Shown here: positions 27,801 through 47,921 of the stretch, piece by piece
Layout: every line of letters begins with the position of its first letter
Position numbering within the stretch: position 1 is the first letter of the stretch
NCBI RefSeq assembly: GCF_044704955.1
Contig: NC_091984.1
Location: 177,878,001-177,942,000 of the forward strand
Reading direction: 5' to 3'
From: Pristiophorus japonicus
Lineage: Eukaryota
DNA length: 64,000 nucleotides
Program-made: the position numbers and the translations under genes
Notes under the pieces: generated by a model
Database searches by the model: none
Told to the model about the DNA's origin: nothing
The model's input: only the letters and a program-made list of their open reading frames with translations

Positions 27801-29340
27801 CTTTCCATGACGGCCAACGCTATGTCCTCCATGGGGGTAAAAGATGGAAGCGTGCTTGTCCTCCTCCAGTGAATTAATGTTGCCTTCTATTATGTGCTAC
27901 ATTCTCCTACAACAAAGAGGGAAGTGTGTCAGTGTGTGTCGTGTAATATGTTTGGCTGATATGGAAGTCATGGTTCAACAGCTGCCAGTGTGTGCGAGCT
28001 GTATGATGTGGGTGTGAAGGTTGCAACAGTATTACATGTGTAAGGTTCAGGTAAAGCATATGATTGGTAGGGTTGAGTCCTGATTGACAAAGATACTTGG
28101 TAGATAGGTAATGGGGATGTAATGAATTATAGAATCGTAAAATGGTTACAGCACGGAACAACGCCATTCGGCCCGTAGAAGCTGTGCCGACTCTCAACTA
28201 GTCCCACTCCACTGCGCTTTCTGCATAGCCTTGCAAGATTATTTCCTTCAGATAGTTATCCAACTCCCTTTTGAAAGATAAATTTGACTCTGCCTCCACC
28301 ATCCTTTTACGCATTCCAGATGTTAACCACTCTCTGTGTAAAATGGTTTGTTCTTATGCCACCTTAGGCTCTTTTGCCAATCATCTTAAATCTTTGTCCT
28401 CTGGTTCTCGACCCTTCTGCCAATAGGAACACTTTCTCTCTATCTACTCTGTCCAGAACGCTCATGAATTTAAGCCCATTTTGTCGAACTCCTTTTAGAA
28501 ATCCATGTACAATATGTCAACCGCATTACCCTCATCAACCCTCTCCATTATTTCATCAATAAACTCGATCACGTTGGTTAAACACGATTTGCCTTTAATA
28601 AATCCGTGTTGGCTTTCCTTAATTAATCCACCCCTAACCAAGTGACTGTTAATTTTTGCCCTGAATACTGTTCCTAAAAGCTTCCCCATGACTGAGGTTA
28701 AACCGACTGGCCTGTAGCTTCTGGGTTGATCATTGCACCCTTTTTTGAACAATGGTGTAACATTTGCAATGCTGCAGTCCTGTAGCACCACCGCCACATC
28801 TATGGAGGATTGGAATATAATGGCCAGTGCCTCTGCAATTTTCGTACTCAATTCCCTTAGCATCTTTGGATACATCACATCCGCTCCTGGTGATGTATCT
28901 ATTTTAAGTAAAGCCGGTCTTTCTAATACCTCTTCTTTATCATTTTTTATCCTATCAATTATCTCCACTACCTCCTCTTTCACTATGTCTATGCCAGCAT
29001 CTACTACCTTGGTGAAGTCAGATGCAAAGTACGCATTTAGTACCTTAGCCATACCCTCTGCCTCCATGCGTATGCCTCCATGTTGGTCCCCTAATCGTCC
29101 CGACCCCTCCTCTTATTACCCATTTATTTTAATATGCCAATGAGGCTAGTGCTGCTGTTGCTAGAACGTGCTATTTAAAGATGAACTCACTGTTCTTGAA
29201 AACTCGTGGCAGATCATTAAAATTCCTGCGGCCAGCTTCTTATAGCTGTGCTCCTGGCATTGACCTATGCCACTAACTCTTGCTAGTGCTTCCTCATCCT
29301 GTCTCCGGAGGGCCTCCTGCACCCCTGAGGATACAGCACT
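24860..29340 (+). mobile_element. Second copy of the Harbinger transposon, interrupted by CR1 (~28128-29140)
   Basis: Colinear with 3383-6900; includes VVICCMLHNLA and an E-rich tail (ORF 26139-26336). Confidence 0.85.
28128..29140 (-). mobile_element. CR1 LINE (internally deleted) inserted in the Harbinger copy
   Basis: ORF 28495-29067 ANVTPLFKKG..YRPVGLTS..QHGFIKGKSCLTN. Confidence 0.9.
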
Positions 29341-29341
29341 T

Positions 29342-31220
29342 AGGAATATAAGAAATAGGAGCTGGAGTAGGTCATTTGGCCCCTCGAGCCTGCTCCACCA
29401 TTCAATAAGATCATGGCTGATTTAAGCATGGACTCAGCTCGAATTCCCTGCCTGCTCCCCGTAACGCTTTATTCCCTTGTCGCTCAAAAATCTGTCTATC
29501 TCCGCCTTAAATATATTCAATGACTCAGCCTCCACAGCTCTCTGGGGCAGAGAATGCCACAGATGTACAACCCTCTGAGAGAAGAAATTCCTCCTCAACT
29601 CAGTTTTAAATGGGCGGCCCCTCATTCTGAGACTATGCCCCCTAGTTTTAGTTTCCCCTATGAGTGGAAACATCGTCTCTGTATCCACCTTATCGAGCCC
29701 CCTCATTATCTTATATGTTTCGATAAGACCACCTATCATTCTTCTGAACTCCAATGAGCATAGGCCCAACCTACTCAACCTATCTTCGTAAGTCAAGCCC
29801 CGCATCTCCGGAATCCGCCTCGTGAACCTTCTGTGAACAGCCTCCAATGCAAGTATATCCTTCCTTAAATACTGAGATAAAAACTGTATGCAGTACTCTA
29901 GCTGTGGCCTCATCCATACCCTGTACAGTTGTAGCAGGACTTCTCCACTTTTATACTCCATCCCCCTTCCAATAAAGGCTAACATTCCATCCCTCTTCCT
30001 GATTATTTGCTGTAGCTGCATCCTAACATGTTATGTTTCATGCACAGGGACCCCCAGGTCCCTCTGTACTGCAGCACTTTGCAATTTTCTCCATTTAAAT
30101 TATAAGTAGCTTTTCTATTTTTTCTACCAAAGTGGATAACCTCACATTTTCCCACATTATACTCGATCTGCCAAATTTTTGTTCACTCATTTAGCCTGTC
30201 TATATCCCTTTGCAGATTTCGTATGTCCTCCTCACAAGTTGCTCTCCCATCCATTTTTGTCTCATCAGCAAACTTGGCTACACTGCACTCTGTCCCTTCA
30301 TCCAAGTAATTAATATAGATTGTAACTAGTTGAGGCCCCAGCATCGTTCCCTACAGACCTCACTAGTTACTGTTTGCCAACCGGAAATGACCCATTTATC
30401 CCGACTCTCTGTTTGCTGTTAGTTAGCCAATCCTCTATCCATGCTAATATATTACCCCCAACACCGTGAATCTTTATCTTGTGCAGCAACCTTTTATGTG
30501 GCACCTTATCTAATGCCTTCTGAAAATCCAAATACACCACATCCACTGGTTCCCCTTTATCCACCTTGCTCGTTACATCCTCAAAGATCTCCAGCAAATT
30601 TGTGAAACATGATTTCCCTTTCATAAAAACATGCTGCCTCTGCTTGATTGAATCATGCTTTTCCAAATGTCCTGCTACTGCTTCCTTAATAATGGACAGC
30701 ATTTTACCAATGACAGATGTTACGCTAACTGGTCTATAGTTTCCTGATTTCTGTCTGCCTCCTTTTTTTAAAATAGGGGCGTTACATTTGCGGTTTTCCA
30801 ATCTGCTGGGCCCTCCCCAGAATCCAGGGAATTTTGGTAGATTACAACCAATGCATCCATTATCTCTACAGCCACTTCTTTTAAGATCCTGGGGTGCAAG
30901 CCATCATGTCCAGGGGACTTGTCCGCCTTTAGTCCCATTATTTTACCGAGTGATAGTGATTGTATTATGTTCCTCCCTCCCTATAGCCCTTAATTAACCA
31001 CTATTGGGATGTTTTTCGTGTCTTCTACCTTGAAGACCGATGCAAAATATTTGTTCAAGGTCTCTGCCATTTCCCTGATCCCCATTATTAATTCCCCAGT
31101 CTCTTCCTCTAAGGCACCAGCATTTACTTTTGCCACTCTTTTCCTTTTTATGTACATGTAGAAACTCTTACTATATTTCGTGCTAGTTTGCTTTCATAAT
31201 CTATCTTCCCTCTCTTTATT
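29342..31220 (-). mobile_element. CR1 LINE ORF2 3' portion
   Basis: ORFs 29434-30021 and 30367-30801 (YLDFQKALDKVPH; FFSQRVVHLW). Confidence 0.93.
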
Positions 31221-32344
31221 GGCCAAGAAATCTTGATCGCCTGCTTCCTGTGAGTAAGTGGGTATAACATTTTTTTTTATATGTGCATTTATCTTAGCCT
31301 GCTGCACCCACATGAGGTCGCGGTCCTGAAGCCTCCTCTGACTGTGCTTCACAGCATGTGCATATCAGGATGTGCGCAGGCCTGGATCTGGAGTCACATG
31401 GCTCTGGGCAGCCAATCAGGTATAGTATGTTCTCATTCAAAATAATGGGAACTCTGTAAGTTGGAGTACCCATTATTATGAATGAGAAACAGGCCCCAAA
31501 AACACACAAAACCATAATAGAAAAATAGAAAAAATACACAACGTATTTTTATTAATTTAAATGAAAGTTATTTATGTATTTAAATAATAAATATTTCGCC
31601 GATTTTTAAACAAATTTTTAACTTGTTGGGCATGACGATTTAAATTTCCTGGTCCGGTGTGCTGTCATTGGTCCTTTGGGTGTGTGTTGTGGGCTCGAAA
31701 AAGGTGGTGTCTGGGTTGTTCAGGGCAGTCTGTGAACCGCAGTCTCGTTTGGTCCAGGTGCTTTCTGCAAATTTGTCCATTGTCTAGTTTGACTACAACC
31801 AACCTATGTCCTTCTTTAGCTATCACCGTGCCCGCGATCCACTTGGAACCATGTCCATAGTTTAGCACATACACAGGGTCATTCAGATCAATTTCCTGTG
31901 ACACAATGGCGCGACCATCGTTTACCTTTTGTTGCTGCCGCCTGCTCTCTACCTGATCGTGCAGCTTGGGGTGAACCAGCGAGAGTCTGGTTTTAAGTGT
32001 CCTTTTCATGAGTAGCTCAGCCGGGGGCACCGCTGTGAGCGACTGGGGTCTCGTGCGGTAGCTGAGCAGTACTCGGGACAGGCGGGTTTGGAGTGATCCT
32101 TCTGTGACTCGTTTAAGGGTCTGTTTGATGGTTTGTACTGCCTGCCCATTGGAGGCTGGTTTAAACGGGGCCGAGGTGACATGTTTGATCCCATTGCGGG
32201 TCATGAATTCTTTAAATTCAGCACCGGTGAAACATGGCCATTGTGACTGACCAGTATGTCAGGCAGGCCGTAGGTGGCGAACATGGCCCTCAGGTTTTCA
32301 ATGGTACCAGTGGCAGTGCTTCCCGATATTATTTCACATTCAAT

Positions 32345-33323
32345 AGAAATATAGAAACATAGAAAATAGGTGCAGGAGCAGGCCATTCAGCCCTTCTAGC
32401 CTGCACCGCCATTCAATGAGTTCATGGCTGAACATGAAACTTCAGTACCCCCTTCCTGCTTTCTCGCCATACCCCTTGATCCCCCGAGTAGTAAGGACTT
32501 CATCTAACTCCCTTTTGAATATATTTAGTGAATTGGCCTCAACTACTTTCTGTGGTAGAGAATTCCACAGGTTCACCACTCTCTGGGTGAAGAAGTTTCT
32601 CCTCATCTCGGTCCTAAATGGCTTACCCCTTATCCTTAGACTGTGACCCCTGGTTCTGGACTTCCCCAACATTGGGAACATTCTTCCTGCATCTAACCTG
32701 TCTAAACCCGTCAGAATTTTAAACGTTTCTATGAGGTCCCCTCTCATTCTTCTGAACTCCAGTGAATACAAGCCCAGTTGATCCAGTCTTTCTTGATAGG
32801 TCAGTCCCACCATCCCGGGAATCAGTCTGGTGAATCTTCGCTGCACTCCCTCAATAGCAAGAATGTCCTTCCTCAAGTTAGGAGACCAAAACTGTACACA
32901 ATACTCCAGGTGTGGCCTCACCAAGGCCCTGTACAACTGTAGCAACACCTCCCTGCCCCTGTACTCAAATCCCCTCGCTATGAAGGCCAACATGCCATTT
33001 GCTTTCTTAACCGCCTGCTGTACCTGCATGCCAACCTTCAATGACTGATGTACCATGACACCCAGGTCTCGTTGCACCTTCCCTTTTCCTAATCTGTCTC
33101 CATTCAGATAATAGTCTGTCTCTCTGTTTTTACCACCAAAGTGGATAACCTCACATTTATCCACATTATGCTTCATCTGCCATTCATTTGCCCACTCACC
33201 TAACCTATCCAAGTCACTCTGCAGCCTCATAGCATCCTCCTCGCAGTTCACACTGCCACCCAACTTAGTTTCATCCGCAAATTTGGAGATACTACATTTA
33301 ATCCCTTCGTCTAAATCATTAAT
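32345..33323 (-). mobile_element. Young CR1 3' end inserted in the Gypsy A integrase
   Basis: Uninterrupted 273-aa ORF2 C-terminus (32442-33263); splits DAFSK|(W)IECEI. Confidence 0.95.
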
Positions 33324-36300
33324 GATTTTGAAAAAGCATCCACCACCACCAGGAACATTTTACCGAGAAACGGGCCTGCATAGTCGACATGGATCCTCGA
33401 CCATGGTCTGGAGGGCCAGGACCACAAACATAGTGGTGCCTCTCTGGGCGCGTTGCTCAACTGAGCAAATATGCTGCATTGCTGTACACAGGACACTAAG
33501 TCAGAGTCGATACCGGGCCACCACACGTGGAAACTGGTTATCGCTTTCATCATTACTATACCCAGGTGTGTGCTGTGGAGATCAGAGATGAACGTATCCC
33601 TGCCCTTTTTTGTTAGCACTACGCGGTTATCCCACAACAGGCAGTCTGCCTGAATGGACAGGCCATCCTTTCGCCGCTGGAACAGCTTGATTAGCTCATG
33701 CATTTCAACGGGGATGCTGGTCCAGCTCACATGCAGTACACAGTTTTTTTTACTAGGGACAGCAGAGGATCTTGGCTGGTCCAAGTCCTAATCTGGCGGG
33801 CCGTGACAGGTGATTTATCATTTTCAAATGCTGCCATGACCATCAACAAGTCTGTGGGCTGTGCCACCATCAGTAATTTTGCAGGCTGCGCCATTTCCAC
33901 CCCAGTGGTGGGCAATGGTAGCCGACTGAGAGCATCCGCACAGTTCTCGGTGCCTGGCCTGTTGCGGATAGTATAGTTATATGCTGATAGCGCGAGTGAC
34001 CACCTTTGTATGCGGGCTGAGGCATTAGTATTTATCACCTTGTTTTCAGCGAACAGGGATGTGAGGGGCTTGTGATCGGTTTCCAGGTCCAATTTGAGGC
34101 CAAACAGGTACTGATGCATTTTCCTTACCCTGAACGCACACGCTAATACCTCTTTCTCAATCATGCTGTAGGCCCTCTCGACCTTAGACAAGCTCCTGGA
34201 AGCATAGGTGACAGGTTGAAACATCCTCCCAATATTAGATTGTTTAATAAATATCCGACTCCGTACGACGATACGTGACATGCTAGCACACGTCTTTTAC
34301 ACGGGTTATACAATACAAGCAGCTTGTTGGAGCATAAACTGTTACTTTGTTTTTTCCCCATACCCAGTTCTCACCTTTGCGCAATAACATATGTAGGAGC
34401 TCTAAAAGGGTGCTTAGCCCCGGTAGGAAGTTACCAAAATAGTTGAGGAGTCCCAGGATCGACCACAGCTCCGTTACGTTCTGTGGCCTGGGCGCAATCC
34501 TGATAGCCTCTGTCTTGGCGTCTGTGGGCTGAATGCCATCCTCCGCGATATTTTTCCCCAAAATCTCCACTTCTGTTGCCATGAAGACACATTTCGATCT
34601 CTTCGGCTGCAGCCCTACGTGATCCAGTTGCTGCAGGACCTCCTCCAGGTTTTGTAGGTGCTCGGCGGTGTCCCGAGCCATGACCAATATGTCGTCCTGA
34701 AAGACCACTGTGTGTGGTACCAACTTGAGTAGGCTCTCCATGTTTCTCTGGAAGATCGCTGCAGTCGACCGAATTCGAAACGGGCATCTGTTGGAGATGA
34801 ACAATCCCTTGTGCGTGTTGATGCAGGTGAGGCCCTTCAAAGACTCCTCCAGCTCCTGCGTCTTGTAGGCCGAAGTCAGGTCGAGCTTGGTGAACGTCTT
34901 GCCTCCTGCTAGCATCGTAAATAGGTCGTCTGCCTTAGGTAGCAGGTATCGGTCCTGTAGCGAGAAACAATTAATAGTTACTTTATAATCGATGCAAATC
35001 CTGACCGTGCCATCACTTTTGAGTACTGTAACAATCAGCCTGGCCCACTCTCTGAATTCCACTGGGGAGATGATGCCCTCGCGTTGCAGCCTGTCCAGCT
35101 CTATTTCCACTCTCTCCCTCATCATGTGAGGTACCGCTCGTGCCTTGTGGTGAATGGGTCATGCCTCTGGGACCAAGTGGATCCGCACCTTTGCCCCGGA
35201 AAAGTTTCCAATGCCTGACTCAAAAAGGGAAGGAAATTTGTTAAGAACCTAGTTACATGAGGCCTCATCGACATGTGATAGCGCTCGGATGTCATCCCCC
35301 TTCCAGTGGATTTTGCCCAGCCAGCTCCTTCCATGCAGTGTGGGGCCATCGCCCAGGACAACCCAGAGTGGCAGTTCATGCACTGTGCCCTCGTAGGTAA
35401 CCTTGACCATGGCGCTGCCCAGGACAATGATAAGCTCTTTGGTGTACATTCTCAGTTTCGTGCGGATGGGGCTCAGGGCTGGTCTGAGTACCTTGTTGCA
35501 CCACAATCTCTCAAACATCTTTTTACTCATGATGGATTGGCTAGTGCCAGTGTCCAGTTCCATGGCTATGGGTAAGCCATTGAATTTTACATTTAGCATT
35601 ATAGGTGGGACATTTCGTCGAAAATGTGTGCACCCCGTGTACTTCAGCGTCTGCCTCCTCTCTCTGAGGCTCGAAATTGCTTTGATCCACCATGGACCGA
35701 TCTTCCTCTGCCTCGTTCGAGGTGCCCCATTGTTCCACAGCTCTTGCAAACATACCCTTTGAAGCGGCATGAATAGGCTGAATGGAAGCCTCCACAACGT
35801 CAAAAAGGTGTGAATTGCCTTGCATTCATACTTTGTTGGGGACTCTGAGTCATCTGGGTCACCTGAGGCCTGCAGGCAGTTGCAGACTCATGGGTTCTGC
35901 CATGTTTATTTCTGCTCGCAAACACAGTTCGAGTTAATTTATGAACATTGCTAGCACTTGTGTGCTGAGAGATTTGTTTGGTGTTATCACTAGTGGACAT
36001 AAACGTCTGTGCTATTGCAATGGTCTTACTGAGGGTCGGTGTCTCTAGTCAAAAGTTTTCATAGGATGGTCTCGTGGCCAATGCCCAGTACAAAAAAGTC
36101 TCTGAGCATTTGTTCCAGGTAGCCATCAAACTCACATAGTCCTGCATGTCGCCTTAGCTTGGCAACGTAGCTCGCCACTTCCTGGCATTCAGATCGCTGG
36201 CACGTGTAGAACCGATACCGCGCCACCAGCACGCTCTCCCTCTGGTTAAGATGCTCCTGAACCATTGTACACAGCTCCTCATACAACTTATCTGTGGGTT

Positions 36301-36528
36301 TCACCGGAGCCAGAAGATTCTTCATGAGGCTGTAGGTCGGTGCCCCGCAGACTGTGAGGAGAACCGCTCTCCTTTTTGCAGCACTTCCTTCTCCATCCAG
36401 CTCGTCGGCTACAATGTACTGGTCTAGCCGTTCGACATAGGCTTCCCAGTCCTCACGCTCCAAGAACTTCTCCAGGATGCCCACAGTTTGCTGCATCTTT
36501 ATGTTGGATTCGTATTCTCGTCACCAGT

Positions 36529-36740
36529 TATTGTGTTCATAACTCAGATGAGGCTGCACACAGGGAGGTTAAAGTAACAGTGACCTCAGTCTTTAATAAG
36601 ACACTCCAGAGTGAGAAACAGGCCTTAGGAGCTGGCTTATATACAGTGCTCCCCAAGGGATGCTGGGATCCATTGGGACTTCAGGGGATGAGCTCCCTGT
36701 TGGCAGAACATGGGAGTGCATGCTTTACAGATACACAATA
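36529..36740 (-). repeat. 5' LTR of Gypsy element A with adjacent tRNA-Ser-type PBS (TGGTGACGAG, ~36517-36526)
   Basis: 212-bp segment with terminal inverted repeats TATTGTGT...ACACAATA, internal TATA and ATTAAA on the - strand, directly upstream of the PBS and gag ATG. Confidence 0.8.
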
Positions 36741-36787: not shown

Positions 36788-37446
36788 TGTTAATATGAAT
36801 GTTTTCTCGAAAGAATCACTCAACACTCAGAATCGGTTCCAATGCCAAAGCGGCCTTTTATTATGCCGGCAGGGAGGAAGCCTCTGGTCTAGATCCAGGC
36901 ACCTCTCTCCACCGAACAAAGAAATCCATCGATATTTATATGTTTTACAACAGTTCATTACAGTTACTTCAGCCCATATCGGCTGGACACAATCCAATCA
37001 TAACGATTATAGATTACATATAGATTTCTTTAACCCAATAGAATTCCCCTGAAAACTCAGGGGCTGTATGTTCGGTTCTTGTCAGCTCGGGCTGATTAAT
37101 GACCTTGTTATGTGAGGCAGCCCCCCCCCCCGTTATCTCTGTTCCTCGGGGCTCTACTGTGTGAAGTCATTGATTAAGGACATTCCATACCAGGTACTAT
37201 AATGGTTCGTTATAGTTATCTTGTCTCAAGCGGATGATCCAAGGCATTCCTGGTAGTGGGCCTCACAGGGTCATTGCTCGGTCAGCCTCAGTCAACAGTT
37301 CATTGCTTGACTAACTGAGTTCCCATCATGCTTGGGCAGCCATTTTATATGTGTCCATTTTAAACATATATGCGTATAGATATATTCAGCAGGTGCCTAA
37401 TGCCTAGTGTATATATATATTCAGCAGGTGCCTAATGCCTACAACA
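36788..37446 (-). repeat. ERV 3' LTR (~660 bp) preceded by polypurine tract
   Basis: - strand PPT GAAAGGGGGGAAT (37459-37447) directly followed by TGTTG. TATAAAT near 36935-36941, AATAAA at 36857-36862, ends ...TTAACA at 36788. Internal 26-bp tandem duplication (37381-37406 / 37416-37441). The U5 end is less certain than the U3 end. Confidence 0.75.
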
Positions 37447-37583
37447 ATTCCCCCCTTTCGTTAAAGGGACTAATCCTAGTCCCCCTTTAACTTACCACCC
37501 TACCTTTATCAGATATTGTGCAAGCCCGGTACTCCCTGCCTCAACGTGCTGGCCAGTCACGCGGTTTCAGGAGTCCCGGTTGC

Positions 37584-39648
37584 TTAGATCAAATTGACAA
37601 ACGCCAAATCCTCCTGCCCCTCTATGAGACAGGCTTGTTTAATATCCGGGGACCGGGCATGGGTCCCTCTTCATTGCGCATGGTGTCTGCATGCCTGGCA
37701 GGCCATTATGTCCCATGTTATTATTCGAATCCAAGGATGGATGTTCACATTTATTCCCCAGTCCCAGATCTTTGTCCACCAACTCTGACTTTGTAAGTCT
37801 ACATCGATATCTTCTTCCAGTACTTTGATTTTAGTTTGCAGTTGGTAGTAGAGTTTTATGGATTGACCCACCCGGAGCCTCAATTCCCGTAATACTTCGG
37901 TTGGATGTGGGATAGGGACATGATCTGGCTCGTCATAATCCTGCAAATGATCGTGGAGCTGATCGGTTACAATAACAACTTCGGGCTTCTGGCTCCTAAC
38001 CTGGGTGATATGCGCTTGCCCAATCGTGACAGGTCGTAGCGGCGCAAAGCAAAAGTTCGGCTGTGGTATCGGGCACTGCAGGTCATTATACTGGCATGAA
38101 CGCTCGGTAGTAGAGACGCAGTACCTTCCCTTTCCTCCGTAGCCTGTTCTCGCAAAGTGCCTGTGTGCGGGCACTATTTCTAGTACACATCCATCGGTTC
38201 GGTTAAACCCGCACTCGTCTAGCTCCCCTCGGCCCACCGGGTGGGGACATACTGTGATCTCCCCCCTTTGCTTGCATTCTGTTAGGGAAATCCTGGTAAG
38301 TATATCGTTTTGGCGAACGGTGGAGGTGGTGGTCAGATAGTAACGTATGGAGACATTTTCCCGCATTACTCGATATTCTTCAGTTGGTACAGGGGGAATG
38401 GCCCTGAGTCCGGCGTGGCTATAGGGATCATCAGGACTATCCCTGTCCCAGTAGTCCTACCCATCTGGCAATCTGGAATCGCTGGGTACATTCGGGTCAG
38501 TCCCTTCAGAGTGCACTTATCCAGTGTCCCTCTCTGGTTAGCCAACTGAGCTAAATGTGAACTGTCTATCCAATCGGGTACCTCCCCGCGTTGGATCTGA
38601 TCGAGATTGTGGCGGATCTCTCCCACCATCCACAGACCATAAGCGTGACAGTGTTGCCCCTGTCTTTGTTTTCCAGTATCTTCTCTTTCTCTATCAATGA
38701 GGTGATTGATGGTTTTGGCGTGAGCTTCCAGGACTGAGATGCCATCCAACTGGATTTCGGCACCCTCCTTTCCTAGGTTGGCTTGGTCTTCCTGGTTTTG
38801 CTCCACCCTTTCTAACAACCCCTTCATCACTCCTCTAAGCTGTTCCACCCTCTCGTTTAACTCTTGTATGTCTATCGAGTTCACTACGGAGGTCCCTGTA
38901 TTGAAACCGGTAGCAACATCATTAACTATTCTCCTCTTTATCCTGGGGGCTGACTCCTGTCCTCGGAATCTACTGGCACCCATTGCATCGGCAGCCTGCT
39001 GCATTACAACTCTACTTAATACATTGTACATTTTCCTTTACTGTTCTGTGCAGTATTCCGGCATCTGGATGCCTGAAATATTGATCAGGACAGGCACAAT
39101 TTCATGTTTAACATTATCATACAATTATTCCCCTTCGTTGTACATTACGATCCCATTTTCTGGCCCCTTGGTATTTATCGGACAAGGCAGTTCCTTGGGC
39201 AATGTAGTGGCTCGTACGGGGCGTGACGTCGGCGAAGGGGAGAAGCACACATACAGTGATATTGCAGCCGCTCCCACCTCCTCGTAGTACCCACACAGCC
39301 CCACTCCCATTTTGCGGATGACTGATTGCTGGGACTGTCCCGGAGGTGCGCAAATTATGCCGAAAGTACATTCATCGGGCCCTTTGGCATCCCTCCGTTT
39401 AATGCAGCTGCTCCTTATACCCGTGGAGCACTGAACACATACCCGGTTCTTATTTGGATTCACTTGTAACCATGCATTAAATAAGTCCTGTCCTTGCTCC
39501 AATCCTTAGTCGCTGGGACACACACTCCATCCATCAAATTGAACAAAATTCCATAGTTCATGTGATTGTTTATTTCCAGCGTGCTCTGCTGTCCGTCGGT
39601 GTCGTCCAGGGCTATCCATATTACGAGTAGCATCGTCCGTATTCCCAT
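37584..39648 (-). pseudogene. env: ERV env, foamy-TM/paramyxovirus-F-like class I fusion glycoprotein; disrupted
   Basis: Signal-like MGIRTMLLVIWIAL at 39648; Cys-rich N-terminal domain; Pro/Thr linker; RIKR furin site; fusion-peptide-like IVNDVATGFNTGTSVVNS; heptad repeat; long Cys-rich region; Trp-rich membrane-proximal WWTKIWDW. Stops at 39125, 39038 and 37671; frameshifts near 39500 and 38366. Confidence 0.9.
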
Positions 39649-39755
39649 TCTGATAAGTATTATCTGTAATTTTAAACAGACGGCCTGGTCGTCACCAGGG
39701 GATAGGTTCTGCTCTATGAATATCCTCGTCACCCTGCGAAATCAGAAGTACAAGG

Positions 39756-39956
39756 TTATAGTCGAACCATTTCGAGCTGAATCTGTAGGGCGTGCGCCCG
39801 TGTCTTTTCCCACTTAACTATTACCCAAACTCCTATTACCACCAAGACCAAAGCTATTCCTCCGAATACCCCTTCCAAAAGGGTGTCTAATCACTCCTGG
39901 CATTTTGCAGCATACCATTCTGTCTCGTCTAGGCGTATCACCCTTGGCTCGGCCAT
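39756..39956 (-). pseudogene. Small ERV accessory ORF (66 codons, one internal TGA) encoding a predicted single-pass membrane protein
   Basis: ATG overlaps the pol stop (TAATG, 39958-39954). Reads MAEPRVIRLDETEWYAAKCQE*LDTLLEGVFGGIALVLVVIGVWVIVKWEKTRAHALQIQLEMVRL*. Confidence 0.65.
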
Positions 39957-42145
39957 TACCCTTCTGAGCTATACCTTTTTAATTGCGACCAATGCTTCCA
40001 CCACCCTTTCCCTCTCATATCGACACATGCACACGTGTCGCTAGTCAAAATGATGTCATATGGTCCGGTCCACCTTGGGGCAAACCTCGTCCTGTCGGGG
40101 GTGACTTGTACCAACACTTTGTCGCCTACCTGTGGGAGGTGCGTGTCGGCATTTCCTTTGTTTTGGATCTCCAAGTCCCGAATGATCTGTTGCTCTACCA
40201 CCTCTTTTCTTAGTTCCTTCAACTGTGAATCTAATTGTTTTACATATTGTTTAATCCGACTCGTAAAGGTCCCATGTCCTCTCCCCCCGCTATGATACCT
40301 TCGGGGAGCGTCATGGCCCTCCCCGTCATTAATTCAAAGGGGGTCAGACCTGTGGTCTGGTTAGGGGTGGCCCTAAGTCTCATTCGTATACAGGGTAGAA
40401 CGTCCACCCATTCCTTCCCGGTTTCAGTTATGGCTTTGGCAATTGCTGTCTTAAGGGTACGGTTCATTCGCTCCACCATTCCCGAGCTCTGTGGATGGTA
40501 CAGGATGTGGAACCGTTGTCGGATTCCAAGCAGACCGCATGCCCACTTCATGATCTGACCCGTGAAGTAGGTCCCCTGGTCTGAGTCAATTTGGAGGGGC
40601 ACTCCCCACCGTGGGATTATGTCGAATGCGAGGCTCTGCGCTACGTGGATGCTCCGCAATCCCGGGTGGGAAAAACCTCAACCCACCTGGTAAATTGATC
40701 AATAATGACCAGGCAGTATTTCTTTCCCCGACTGTTGGGTAGGGGCCCTGTGAAATCAATCTGTAGATTCTCCCACGGGCCCCTGGGACGTGTCTGATGT
40801 GCCATTTTGACCTTTATGGGTCTGCCTGGATTATGCTGTGCGCATACTATGCAACGCTGGCAATGCTTGGCTACGTCTCGCCCTACCCCGGGCCACCACC
40901 ATTCTTTGAGTAGACGGCTGAGCATTCCGTCTCACCCAGTGTGGTCCGGCTCATGGTGTAGCCGGAGTAGTTCGGTCTGGATTGAGGACGGGGCAACTAC
41001 TTGTAGTCCCTTCCTCCACACCCCATCCTCCCCAAAGCTGGCCCCTTGGCTTTCCCATAGTGAACGTTCCTCCGAGCTACTCTCTTCCTGTACCTTACGG
41101 ATATTCAGCTCTCCTGGTCCTATCACGGCTACTTTGATTATCTGGGGCTCATCTTCTTCCGCTGCACTTCTGGCTGCTTGATCTGCCAGCATGTTTCCCC
41201 GCTGTTCCCTGCTTTCTACCTTTTGATGCGCCTTGATCTTTATTACTGCTGCCGTAGCGGGTCTTTTAACAGCTCTTACCAACTCCCGAACTATATTCTC
41301 GTGTTTAATGTGCCCCCCTCCTGAGGTTATGTACCCACGTCTGCTCCACGCTATCATGTAGTCGTGTACTACCCCGAATGCGTACCGGCTGTCGGTATAG
41401 ACATTTACACGCTTCCCCTCTGCCCATTTAAGGGCTTCGGTCAACGCTACAAGCTCCGCCACTTGGGCGGACACTGTTCCTTCCAGTGCCCCTCGCAGGA
41501 GGGTGGCACTGTCCTGGTCTACCACACCCCATCCGGTGCGGAATTGCCCGTCGATATATCGTCGGGACCCATCAACGTAAAGGGTTAAATCGGGGTCGCT
41601 CAGAGGTTCATCGGCTATCCCCCCTTCCGTTCCTTGATCTATTTCAGTTTTGCAACTATGGGGTTCGCCTTCGGTCACTATTCCCTCCGCGGGATTAAAA
41701 CCTATATCCCTGATTACTTGTATGGACTGGTCTTTGGGTAATAGTACCGCCTCCCAGGTAGCCCGTCGGGCATCTGACACCGTTTTTAACCTCCCGGTGT
41801 TTAGTAATTCCACTATGGTGTGTTTCTTGTGTAGGATTAGCTGTCCCGACATCGTCACTGGTTCGCATATTCTTGCAGCCCAAGCGGCGCAATCGAGGGC
41901 AGCCACACACCGATGAAGCCCCTTCACTACCGGGGACTCTTGTGTTGCGTAATACGCGACTGGTCTCATTACCCCTCCCTTTTCCTGGGTTATGATGGCG
42001 CTGTAAAAAACCCCCTCGAGATCATAATATACATGGAACGGCTTCATCATGTCAGGTAGCTTCAGCGCCGGGGCTGCCAATAATTCAGCTTTTAATTTCC
42101 CATAGGCTTCTTTTTGCTCCAATCCCCACTCTACCTGCTCTACGT
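39956..42145 (-). pseudogene. pol: ERV pol, 3' part: end of RT, tether (connection) domain, retroviral RNase H, integrase with GPY/F C-terminus; frameshifted
   Basis: ORFs 40932-42122, 40641-40925, 40240-40659 and 39956-40222. Motifs: LKAELLAAPAL..RPVAYY (tether); YVDGS, SAQVAELVAL, YTDSRYAFG, KAH, GNMLAD (RNase H); H-H..CQRCIVC, QIDF, DSDQG, SSGMVERMN (IN D-D-E); WTGPY. Confidence 0.95.
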
Positions 42146-42508
42146 ATCCTTAACGACTACCTACCACCGCTCTGCCCATTGGTCCGACCCTGTTCACAGG
42201 TTTGGATTCCGTTAGTCGCTGTGCACCGCCTGATTCTACCCCAGGGTATATTTCAAATTATTCTACTGGGTCTGGAAGATGTCTTTCGGTATCACGATCC
42301 CACGGTTCAAGTGTGTTCCGGGCACCTACTTAGTTCCTGGCCATCACGTGGGACTAAAGTCCTCTTAATTCATGCTCAGGCTAGGTGTTTGAGATATTGG
42401 ACCATCTCCTCATGTCGATCAACCAGCATCCACCTTCGGCACCCGTTATAAAATTTTTGTTTAAGGTATACTCACCCGGTTTCTCCAAGGGCATTTAGCG
42501 ACTTCAGA

Positions 42509-42526
42509 ATCCTGTTCATGACGCCA
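42509..42526 (-). promoter_or_regulatory. ERV primer-binding site complementary to tRNA-Ser
   Basis: + strand GAATCCTGTTCATGACGCCA (42507-42526) matches, as I recall the sequence, the 3' end of a vertebrate tRNA-Ser(CGA) (GAATCCTGTTCGTGACG-CCA) with one mismatch. On the - strand it follows ...TAACA-G. Confidence 0.8.
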
Positions 42527-42565
42527 CTGTTAGCGTGAAGGCTCGCTTTAAATAGCAAAAGGGAC

Positions 42566-42753
42566 TCATTGGATATATTCAAGAGGGAGTTAGATATGGC
42601 CCTTACGGTTAAGGGGATCAAGGGGTATGGAGAGAAAGCAGGAAAGGGGTACTGAAGGAATGATCAGCCTTGATCTTATTGAATGGCGGTGCAGGCTCGA
42701 AGGGCCGAATGGCCTCCTCCTGCACCTATTTTCTATGTTTCTATGTTTCTATG
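42566..42753 (+). mobile_element. CR1 3' terminal fragment next to the ERV 5' end
   Basis: ggctcgaagggccgaatggcctcctcctgcacctattttctatgtttctatgtttctatg. Confidence 0.9.
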
Positions 42754-44729: not shown

Positions 44730-45265
44730 TAACAACAATAATGACAACTTGCAATTATATAGCGCATTGAACATAGATAGTAAAGCGTGCCAACACGCTT
44801 CACAGACGAATCATCAAACACTATTTTTTCACTAAGACACATCAGGATTTATTAGGGCAGAAAAGCTAGGTGTTAAGGAGTGTCTTAAAGGAGGAAAGGG
44901 AGCCATAGAGCTGGAGACGTTTATGGAAGAATTTCCAAAGCTAATGGCCTGGCAGATGGAGACTCGGTGGCCAATAGTGGAGCGATTAAAATCGGGAATG
45001 CTCAAGAGACTAGAATTGGAAGATCACAGATATCTCGGATGGGTGTAAGGCTGCAAGGAATTACAAAGATAGGGTGGGGTCCTGGAGAGATTTGGAAACA
45101 AGGATCAGAATTTCATAATCGAGGTGTTGCTCAACCGGGAGCCAATGTAACATTTGGATGAGCTCAAGTATACTCAGGGAGATAATGGGAGGACTGCGAG
45201 GAGCGTGATAGAATAGTCAGATGAGCTGCGCCAGGTACGGAGTCAGGCGATGCGATGGAAATCAT
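44730..45265 (-). mobile_element. L2-clade LINE 3' end
   Basis: aacaacaat..aacttgcaattatatagcgc..cgcttcacag tail. Confidence 0.75.
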
Positions 45266-45267
45266 AA

Positions 45268-45805
45268 TAAACATAGAAACATAGAAAATAGGTGCAGAAG
45301 CAGGCCAATCTGCCCATCGAGCCTGCACCACCATTCAATATGATCATGGCTGATCATGCAACTTCAGTACCCCACTCCTGCCTTCTCTCCATACCCGCTG
45401 AACACTTTAGCCATAAGGGCCACATCTAACCCCCTTTTGAATATATCCAACGAACTGGACTCAATAACTTTCTGTGGTAGAGAATTCCATATTTTCGCAA
45501 TTCTCTGGGTGAAAAAGTTTCTCCTCATCTCGGTCCTAAATGGCTTACCCTTTATCCTTAGACTCTGACTCCTGGTTCTGGACTTCGCCAAAATCGGGAA
45601 CATTCTTCCTGCATCTAACCTATCCAATCCCCTCGGAATTTTATATGCTTCAATGAGATCCCCTCTCATTCTTCTAAATTCCAGTGAAAATAAGCCTATT
45701 CGATCCAGTCTTTCTTCATATGTCAGTCCTGCCATCGCGGGAATCAATCTGGTGAACCGTCGCTGAACTCCCTCAATAGCAAGAATGTCCTTCAATAGCA
45801 AGAAT
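45268..45805 (-). mobile_element. CR1 LINE 3' end
   Basis: ORF 45364-45801 KDILAIEGVQRRFTRLIP; (catagaaa)n tail. Confidence 0.93.
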
Positions 45806-47921
45806 AATACAATATACAGAAAGCTACTGCGAAAAATAAGCTCTCCTCAAGCATCACCAAGTTATAAAGAAACCGTCCCCTTATCTTAAAAGTTCCTCCA
45901 TCAATCATTTATAATTAATTCTGAATAAGTATTTTTTTTGTAACCTTCAATTATACCAATATCAGTGTTATTGCACAAGATCCAAATCCTAAATGTTGGA
46001 ATTCCAAAATAATATATCCCTCTCTACTTTAGGCATCAGTGTGTTTAAATCTACCTTGAATCTTTCCTCAATTTGTACTGAAGGATTTAGGACTTTTCGA
46101 CATAGATTTTTCACTTGCTAAAGGAGCAAGGCTTGGTCCATCATATGATGAAAGAGAGACCTGTTAGATTTGACTGTAGAAGTTGGCATTATGGGAAGCT
46201 TGGGAAGTTCGAAAAATATTTTTCAGATTATTTAGAAGGCTAACTGAGAGGATGTACTTTCTCGGACCTAAGTAGCAATCTTAAGGATAGGATAACAGCT
46301 TAGCTAGGCCTTGACAGTCTGAGGAAACTGTTGTAAACTGAAATGCTGTAGCAATAGCTTTTTTGAGCCAAGGAATAGAGGGAAGCGGAAGGTAGCAGCA
46401 GCTTGCTTTTGCCAGCGAGAAGGGTACAACATGAACCATTCTCAAATAAAAAGAGAAAGACCAGAGAGAGCGTAATGTATAAGTATTTCTATAAAGGTTA
46501 GGCGAGGCCATATGTTGCTTATCCTCGTTTTATTGCCTATACCAGTTAAACAGGAGTTCCGGGACTCAGAGCTGAGAGATCCAAAGGTCACTAACCAACA
46601 GCCTGGACACATGCAAGACACGTGATGGAGACACAGACGCCAGACACGCAATAAAATTCGTATTTTTCGTTGCATCCTTTCCCTCACAGAAGAAAATATA
46701 ATGTGTACTCGTTTCAAACGACAAATATTACATTGTTTTTCCTCATCTTCAAAAAATGTGTACATATAATGGAACTCTAAAATGTAACCAAAACAAAACA
46801 CACAATCACAAAGAGGCACTCTGCAAATCATAGTGCTTCAGTCGAGCTGGAGGCTTTCACTGTCTTCCAGATCTGTGATCTGCTATTGGTTTCTGAATAC
46901 CGGGTTGTTTCCGGTGTTTTAGGTGTCGTCACAGGACTTGGAGACTGTAGACAGTTTAGAGGACATCTGAGGACCTGCGCTCCAGAAAAGGCCTCCATCT
47001 GAGGACTGTTGTTTACAGGCGACTCATCAGAATAGATCAATTGACACCATTTCCTCTGGCATGACGAGCCTCCTGCTTACACGCCGAAGCTTCTAGGATC
47101 TATCACACTTGTGCATATACCAGCACTCCAAGTACTCTGGCCAGGGAGTTTCATCCACACTGTATCACCAAGATCTATTGCTTGAAGTGCTGCAGCATGT
47201 ATACTGACGTTGTTTCATGTCGGCAAGGGCAAAAGTGTCTTCCTCAGTCGAATATCGACGCAGCAGAGTGTTTCAGCTATAAGAAATAGATGTCTTGCAT
47301 CTACGAACCATAAGTCTCTGTACAGAGCATGGGTCAACACTTTCATTTGATCTAATAGAGCTAAGAACTCTGACTGGCCGGTCTCTTTGCTTTTCATCAA
47401 GAGCAATTTGATGGTTTTGATGGTAACCTTGGCTTTGCCATCGGACTGCGGCTACTGAGGTGACGTAGTTCCGCCTTAAAATCCCCATGTCTTGTCAAAT
47501 ACTGCAAAATGCGCTGACGCGAATTGTGTATCATTAACTGAAACTGGTAGTTCAAATGTCACAAAGATTTCTTGAGTTCTCTCAGAACACTGTTTGTAGT
47601 AACTGAAGTGAGCCTGACTACTTAGATGCAGTTAACGTAGCAATCGCACATGACGAGCCGGGTGCGGCAATTTGGCTCACAAACGTCAGCATCAATCTTT
47701 GACCAAGGCCCATCTTCAATCTCCTGATATACTAGTGGTTCCTTACTTGGAGAACTGTAATGAGCCCTGTTAAAGTCCTGGACCAATAGAGGCTGTCATG
47801 GGTTCTGAGGATACAATCTTCAATGCCAGTGTCCATTGAATGTGCGAATAACATTAATTCCTTGCTTAGTGCAGCTGGCACTACGAGTTGCTGTCCCTTG
47901 AATATCAATTCATGATGGATC

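Follow-up and report, generated by a model that had tools for sequence, protein, structure and literature searches.

The stretch of DNA analysed here, 64,000 nt from the shark Pristiophorus japonicus (the window; contig NC_091984.1, positions 177,878,001 to 177,942,000), carries an endogenous retrovirus (ERV) on its minus strand, at positions 42539-36788. The provirus is internally deleted and broken. Read in its own direction, it consists of a remnant of the 5′ long terminal repeat (LTR), a primer-binding site (PBS), a leader, a deletion, the tether, RNase H, and integrase (IN) portions of pol, a small membrane open reading frame (ORF), a broken env, a polypurine tract (PPT), and the 3′ LTR. 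An earlier note on this DNA had proposed a true retrovirus with two RNase H domains and an envelope protein (Env) resembling the fusion (F) proteins of paramyxo- and pneumoviruses and the Env of foamy viruses, and this combination is supported by Pfam and by matches at the level of structure. The same note had assigned the element to the lokiretroviruses; here the motif in the reverse transcriptase (RT), the kind of RNase H, and phylogenetic trees placed Pol inside the ordinary retroviruses instead. The family is very probably an ERV lineage with such a Pol, outside class I and the foamy-like group and near the snakehead-like grade, joined to a predicted F-type Env, and represented in the window by a dead, internally deleted copy.

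The tether, which is the degenerate first RNase H or RT connection, spans 41742..42128 (PF17919, E 3.8e-11; PF17917, E 5.1e-7); like all features of the provirus, it lies on the minus strand. It is followed by a catalytic RNase H of murine leukaemia virus (MLV) type at 41160..41591 (PF00075, E 2.5e-22; RNase H of MLV and xenotropic MLV-related virus in the PDB, E 6e-36), and by an integrase with zinc finger, core, and C-terminal domain at 39956..41000, of which the start is approximate (rve, E 0.003; MLVIN_C, E 7.9e-5). The Pfam matches thus bear out the domain order that had been described. The integrase frame contains one stop (~40932) and is shifted twice (~40640 and ~40250). A candidate accessory gene, a 66-codon ORF with a single membrane helix, lies at 39756..39956; its ATG overlaps the pol stop (TAATG), and in this copy it is broken by a stop. 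The env gene (37584..39648) consists of a signal peptide, a Cys-rich head, a Pro/Thr linker, an F2-like part, the furin site RIKR (38944-38933), an F1-like part, and a membrane anchor, and is interrupted by three stops and four frameshifting indels, with 13 codons of the anchor lost. The motifs RIKR, LDQIQRGEVPDW, LYQLKNI, LTECKQRGEITVCP, and GRYCVS occur in the order first reported, spread over two frames. The fusion peptide postulated after the cleavage site has only weak hydrophobicity (Kyte-Doolittle mean 0.45).

The 3′ LTR (36788..37446) is 659 bp long, is bounded by TG and CA, and contains AATAAA at 36862 and a 35-bp internal duplication at 37374-37441; the PPT (37448..37459) was assigned from its sequence. 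The 5′ LTR is reduced to its last ~12 nt (42528..42539), which match the LTR end of full copies. The remaining LTR sequence is gone, and the remnant adjoins the 3′-end fragment of a long interspersed nuclear element (LINE; 42540-42752, plus strand), which we take to be CR1. The 64-kb window yielded a single LTR match and no second one. The PBS (42509..42526) is complementary, with one mismatch, to the 3′ end of a tRNA-Ser(CGA) gene of the same genome (L054), in agreement with the tRNA-Ser assignment of the earlier note. Among the 24 PBSs read in the 40 fetched loci of the family, 13 match tRNA-Ser(CGA) perfectly and two are of another type, presumably Ser(AGA). Rfam gave no match at the PBS, and ARAGORN found no tRNA across the window. 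The leader (42136..42508), a region that had been read as pol, shares 78-95% identity with the leaders of those 20 copies that were retrieved with env. It ends at a deletion junction with 6 nt of microhomology (42136..42141), where ~2.9 kb, comprising gag, protease (PR), and RT, were lost compared with full copies. Even when up to 2 mismatches were allowed, the genome showed a single instance of the junction pattern, which is private to the window copy; because of this single occurrence and the microhomology, the idea of a spliced or amplified leader-tether variant was rejected. A putative env splice donor (42165/42164) and acceptor (39664/39663) are suggested by a shark gene model (P0002) that joins the leader frame to env. 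Since the copy has no promoter LTR, no gag, PR, or RT, and a broken env, it can by itself be neither expressed nor mobilised. No sign of a host function was seen in this dead fossil.

The family is abundant in the genome. First-look searches gave 2567 env, 1181 pol, and 3947 LTR candidates (40 scored each), figures that are not copy numbers. Of the 39 other loci matching env, the best 20 were fetched, together with 20 picked from the 39 other loci matching pol; full-length copies with gag, PR, and RT, which the earlier note had suggested looking for, were recovered. All 20 copies retrieved with env (L011-L030, 6.1-7.6 kb) consist of leader and env, show no match to the window pol, and retain at most 17% of gag, inside a degraded A+T-rich stretch. 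Both LTRs are present within the fetched stretch in 19 of these 20, with a Kimura two-parameter divergence of 0.011-0.040 (median 0.031), equivalent to 2.5-9 million years at a mammalian rate, or 25-91 million years at the shark rate assumed in PMC4422223. A clear 4-5-bp target-site duplication (TSD) was seen by eye in at least 10 of the 19. Every one of the 20 copies retrieved with pol covers at least 75% of pol, and eight cover at least 86% of gag. Ten gag-less copies in ten different places (L039-L048) form a very young group, whose identity to L040 over pol-env is 99.4-99.8%; the poly-A runs in their pol vary, and ~146 nt of the env head are lost.

The copy L049, in which the gag, pol, and env frames are all open, was used as the annotation reference. 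A 469-codon gag frame with two CCHC knuckles (zf-CCHC, E 3.8e-7) is followed by TGA and then by an in-frame pol of 1178 codons, with the order PR-RT-tether-RNase H-IN. The layout of a full copy is LTR, PBS(Ser), gag with two CCHC knuckles, TGA, pol in frame, small membrane ORF, env, PPT, and LTR, with TSDs of 4-5 bp. A diverged sister family with a related integrase and env start is present in the same genome (L052 1357-3058, minus strand); this sister element weakly matches PF00523 (E 0.0055).

The RT of L049 carries the motifs LPQGFHNSP and QYVDD. Its identity is 72% and 60% to its two nearest relatives (the second in a shark cluster); teleost ERVs follow with 45-52%, snakehead retrovirus (SnRV; row P0226, by eye near letter-for-letter the published RT) with 41.6%, gamma-like rows with 35-38%, and the foamy-like row with 33%. 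An RT tree was built from 38 rows chosen from 69, in which class I is represented by unnamed fish, amphibian, and amniote ERVs and not by walleye dermal sarcoma virus (WDSV) itself. In this tree, L049 falls in a four-row clade with shark proteins (100/97), inside an 11-row shark and teleost clade (97/89), and outside a separate 14-row class I clade (99/96). SnRV, ENS-3, and a row that by eye resembles the elephant shark ERV lineage CmiERV-I (P0225) form a polytomy below the shark and teleost group plus class I. A tree of RT, tether, and IN (30 rows) recovered the shark clade (100/100) and the shark and teleost clade (95/91), with an open backbone. Placement with Gypsy, outside all retroviruses, was rejected by the approximately unbiased (AU) test (p-AU 0.0078). 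Judged from sequence, Pol lies inside the ordinary retroviruses, outside class I and the foamy-like group, and near, but not provably with, SnRV. The fallback of the earlier note, a related deep lineage, therefore holds only loosely, for a lineage of shark and teleost ERVs that has no name and lies between class I and the snakehead-like grade.

All eight near-length matches to the Env are shark proteins, the best with 86% identity, and a representative search gave 56 matches, of which eight of the 10 looked up were named as from sharks, a skate, and frogs. In the full-length copy, the env frame is open and contains neither CX6CC nor an LQNR-type immunosuppressive domain (ISD), as had been reported for the window. 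An AlphaFold model of the L049 env, made from a 50-row alignment, was searched with Foldseek, as the earlier note had suggested, and matched both F and foamy Env. In the PDB, 258 matches at E<=0.001 included the F proteins of human parainfluenza virus 3 (best, E 5.8e-11), respiratory syncytial virus, Langya virus, and Newcastle disease virus (NDV), with foamy Env at rank 26 (E 3.7e-7). In BFVD, an unnamed protein and the Env of walleye epidermal hyperplasia virus 1 (WEHV-1; rank 2) both reached E 2.5e-14, followed by lispivirus and baculovirus F, WDSV Env (rank 14, E 1.5e-9), and feline foamy Env (rank 39); the walleye entries are the predicted Envs Q9WHI8 and A4GTG3. VIA-align placed NDV F on top (Z 10.2, 354 aligned, rmsd 17), with human metapneumovirus F at 8.8 and foamy Env at 7.9. 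Language-model neighbours of the protein were Fusion_gly/Baculo_F at 0.93, with low recognition. On the basis of this model, the family Env is predicted to be a fusogen of paramyxo/pneumovirus F type.

The matched F core corresponds to Env residues ~169-560 and is preceded by the Pro/Thr linker and the Cys-rich head. A head of this kind, ~125 aa long, was seen in shark relatives only; of the other relatives, P0102 has an Ig-looking head (V-set E 0.045) and P0109 has none. Folded alone, the N-terminal head reached a pLDDT of 47, and Foldseek found nothing similar to it at E<=0.001; a protein atlas gave no usable match for it. A search of IMG/VR yielded a single weak, irrelevant locus. The F core is shared by a set of frog and unnamed proteins (P0102, P0089, P0094, P0123, and P0109) with Ig-looking N-terminal heads or none, and several Mantella copies are full-length ORFs of 677 aa. 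Foamy Env is related to paramyxo- and pneumovirus F (PMC11468914), and the walleye virus Envs have no gamma-type hallmarks (PMC3758190, PMC9967133). Since the model matches F, foamy Env, and walleye epsilonretrovirus Env, the F fold is not specific to lokiretroviruses; since exogenous walleye epsilonretroviruses are also without the gamma-type hallmarks, the absence of CX6CC and ISD is not diagnostic of a lokiretrovirus.

Dual RNase H domains are common to all retroviruses. Together with an F-type Env bearing RxKR and a motif order like that of the Loki-Xtr Env (by eye), they would fit a lokiretrovirus, as the earlier note had proposed. Such an element would be new for cartilaginous fishes, since Wang & Han (PMC7947760) report none of six chondrichthyan genomes as positive and chondrichthyans do lie outside the reported hosts. 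That reading now appears most improbable. The RT has LPQGF where 24 of 24 lokiretrovirus RT rows in the supplement of that paper have PFG; the window RNase H is MLV-type, whereas lokiretrovirus RNase H groups with foamy RNase H, and lokiretrovirus RT is sister to all retroviruses (PMC7947760), a position rejected for L049 by the AU test; and no SMC Pfam match was found in the three L049 ORFs scanned. The exclusion comes from the RT motif, the RNase H type, and this test of a position outside all retroviruses, not from lokiretrovirus rows in the trees. The element is not a shark lokiretrovirus, and the extension of the lokiretrovirus host range to sharks falls with that identity. A foamy-like shark ERV, of the kind reported from cartilaginous fish, is very unlikely as well: the Env fold matches foamy Env, the best integrase match of L049 Pol in the PDB is prototype foamy virus IN, and grouping with the one foamy-like row was not rejected (p-AU 0.077), but the best overall match of Pol is MLV RT (3e-108, ahead of Ty3 at 3e-55 and foamy at 7e-50), whereas a control, the fish foamy-like Pol P0055, best matches foamy Pol. 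In addition, no foamy chain is among the 14 PDB matches of the window RNase H at E<=0.001, the careful trees separate the element from the foamy-like row (92/95 and 93/98), and Gag carries two CCHC knuckles, which foamy Gag is not known to have.

The walleye matches raise the alternative of a basal epsilon-like virus (class I, clade Mu) that shares the unusual Env of the walleye viruses, and the MLV-type RNase H, the MLVIN_C domain, the in-frame gag-stop-pol arrangement, and the sister position of class I in the RT tree agree with it. It is nevertheless unlikely, given the place of the element outside the class I clade and the two CCHC knuckles of Gag; forced placement among epsilon-like rows was also rejected (p-AU 2e-6), in a row set that is itself not monophyletic and includes no named WDSV or WEHV Pol. 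Membership in the true snakehead retrovirus clade (clade Huo), like CmiERV lineage I but with a different, F-type env, is evenly balanced, and is a finer placement compatible with the preferred reading rather than exclusive of it. The RT is nearer to SnRV than to class I or foamy-like rows; with CmiERV lineage I, the family has in common a Ser-type PBS, the CAA-TGA end of gag, and LTR termini that look alike (by eye); the small ORF between pol and env recalls the accessory ORFs of SnRV; and the constraint was not rejected (p-AU 0.076 and 0.138). Neither careful tree, however, recovered this clade, P0225 falls outside the clade of the element, and the Env of CmiERV lineage I is gamma-type.

Among the 20 pol-less copies, shared env variants have a ratio of nonsynonymous to synonymous polymorphism (pN/pS) of 0.13 (0.16 without CpG columns), compared to 0.74 (0.72 without CpG columns) for private variants (p=8e-11); shared pol variants have a pN/pS of 0.08. 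The shared env variants of the pol-less copies are under purifying selection. The 66-codon membrane ORF (L049 7547-7747) is stop-free in 18 of 21 pol-bearing copies, with a shared pN/pS of 0.28 (p=1e-4), and a diverged homologue is detectable in six of the 20 pol-less copies. We take its product to resemble SH or Vpu, and TAATG to resemble a stop-start coupling. A life cycle can be proposed from these features. Reverse transcription would be primed by tRNA-Ser, to which the PBS is complementary; Pol would be made by read-through of the UGA at the end of gag, and Env from a spliced RNA joining leader and env, as in the gene model. By analogy to F and foamy Env, furin might cut RxKR, leaving the F2-like part intertwined with the F1-like part, which could then refold into a six-helix bundle. 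The ~125-aa Cys-rich head probably binds the receptor, as the variability of heads among relatives suggests. The family is likely to have spread by Env-dependent reinfection and by complementation in trans, the latter because copies without gag and pol carry an env whose shared variants are under purifying selection.

Several points weigh against this reading of the family. The Env model is of moderate quality (pLDDT 65, pTM 0.46) and was made for L049 and not for the broken env of the window; its TM-scores (0.2-0.35 by query) are low, and in VIA a Z of 8.8 is attained even by helical bundles that are unrelated. Support for F at the sequence level is absent in Pfam and in the PDB, searched by sequence and by profile: the family Env does not match PF00523, and Pfam scans of single Envs and of all 50 alignment members gave no F match, the sole hit being Baculo_F (E 0.0011) in one chimeric relative. 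The Pol trees contain no lokiretrovirus, walleye virus, or CGIN1 row, class I is sister to the shark and teleost group at only 81/93, SnRV remains in a polytomy, and neither the SnRV constraint nor the foamy-like grouping was rejected. The env tree mixes pol-less and pol-bearing copies, with one 10-copy pol-less clade (support 99), so that it may have been helper viruses in which selection acted; that the satellites recombined repeatedly with helpers is a serious alternative to their having been selected themselves. Read-through, splicing, and the function of the head are inferred steps.

In the surroundings of the provirus, 3′ fragments of one LINE family lie on both strands of the window, at 29300-30200, 32340-33360, 42540-42752, and 45260-45850. 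A degraded Gypsy-type LTR retrotransposon with gag-PR-RT-single RNase H-IN occupies 31600-36740 on the minus strand, beginning ~50 bp beyond the proviral 3′ LTR and interrupted by a LINE piece. It was considered as the missing 5′ half of the provirus and ruled out, being downstream, having a single RNase H, and grouping with Gypsy.

The provirus family bears on the origin of retroviral env. Amplified ERV families usually lose env; abundant copies that keep env and have no pol are the reverse of this pattern, and offer a tractable case of complementation in trans. Foamy Env joined the F-like group in 2024. An F-type Env on enzymes of ordinary fish-retrovirus type suggests a wider distribution of such envelopes among retroviruses than has been described, and cautions that an F-like env alone does not identify a lokiretrovirus. 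Wang & Han (PMC7947760) left four scenarios for the origin of retroviral env open, because an F-like Env was then known only in lokiretroviruses; the combination of an F-type Env, an orthoretrovirus-side Pol, and the predicted walleye fold makes the scenario of an ancestral F-type Env with gamma-type replacement testable. A wider synthesis can be offered only tentatively. Under it, an unnamed shark, skate, and frog lineage with an orthoretrovirus-type Pol would have kept an F-type Env ancestral to Retroviridae, a fold uniting lokiretroviruses, foamy viruses, walleye epsilonretroviruses, and this lineage, with gamma-type Env as a later replacement. To this Env would be added a swappable N-terminal receptor-binding head (Cys-rich, Ig-like, or absent), an SH/Vpu-like protein whose start codon overlaps the pol stop and so couples it to pol, and env-only satellites without gag and pol, selected to supply Env in trans. 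An F-type Env in a shark ERV that is neither lokiretroviral nor foamy was not found described in the open full-text literature, a scope that leaves subscription papers and Repbase entries outside and includes passages of PMC10699275, PMC12193657, PMC11521997, PMC12583693, PMC13709493, 10.1101/2023.10.26.564294, and 10.1101/2021.11.05.467493. An F fold for walleye virus Env was likewise not found stated in open full texts; supplements such as Viro3D Dataset EV6 may list walleye Envs.

Compared with known systems, the nearest parallels of Pol are in the SnRV-like clade, with which the family has the motifs LPQGFH.SP and LQYVDD in common, although no joint clade with SnRV or P0225 was recovered. 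SnRV-like ERVs were already known from elephant shark (PMC4422223), and clade Huo from all vertebrate lineages (PMC6001957, PMC4977317, PMC8922424). The Env of CmiERV lineage I, in a hand translation of scaffold 2 of the supplement (PMC4422223), has LQNR (ISD) and CX6CC, and is thus gamma-type; the shark family described here is therefore different from that lineage. Lokiretroviruses (PMC7947760) have in common with the family a tether and second RNase H and an F-like Env with RxKR, coiled coil, and membrane anchor; they differ in RT motif, tree position, and RNase H type, and the family Env has the additional Cys-rich head before the F core. Lokiretrovirus integrase is related to CGIN1; on this point the MLVIN_C match of the window integrase is suggestive at most. 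The walleye viruses WDSV and WEHV share the Env without gamma hallmarks (PMC9967133), a similar predicted fold, and an MLV-type RNase H, whereas the family Pol lies outside the sampled class I clade, its Gag has two CCHC knuckles, and its Env is 707 aa long, compared to 1159-1317 aa in the walleye BFVD models. Foamy Env and paramyxo/pneumovirus F (PMC11468914) share with the family Env a nested F-type core (predicted here), furin cleavage, and long heptad repeats, at only 11-16% identity, and the variable domain of the family Env is N-terminal. The family Pol and Gag are not foamy-like. Foamy Pol is translated from its own spliced mRNA.

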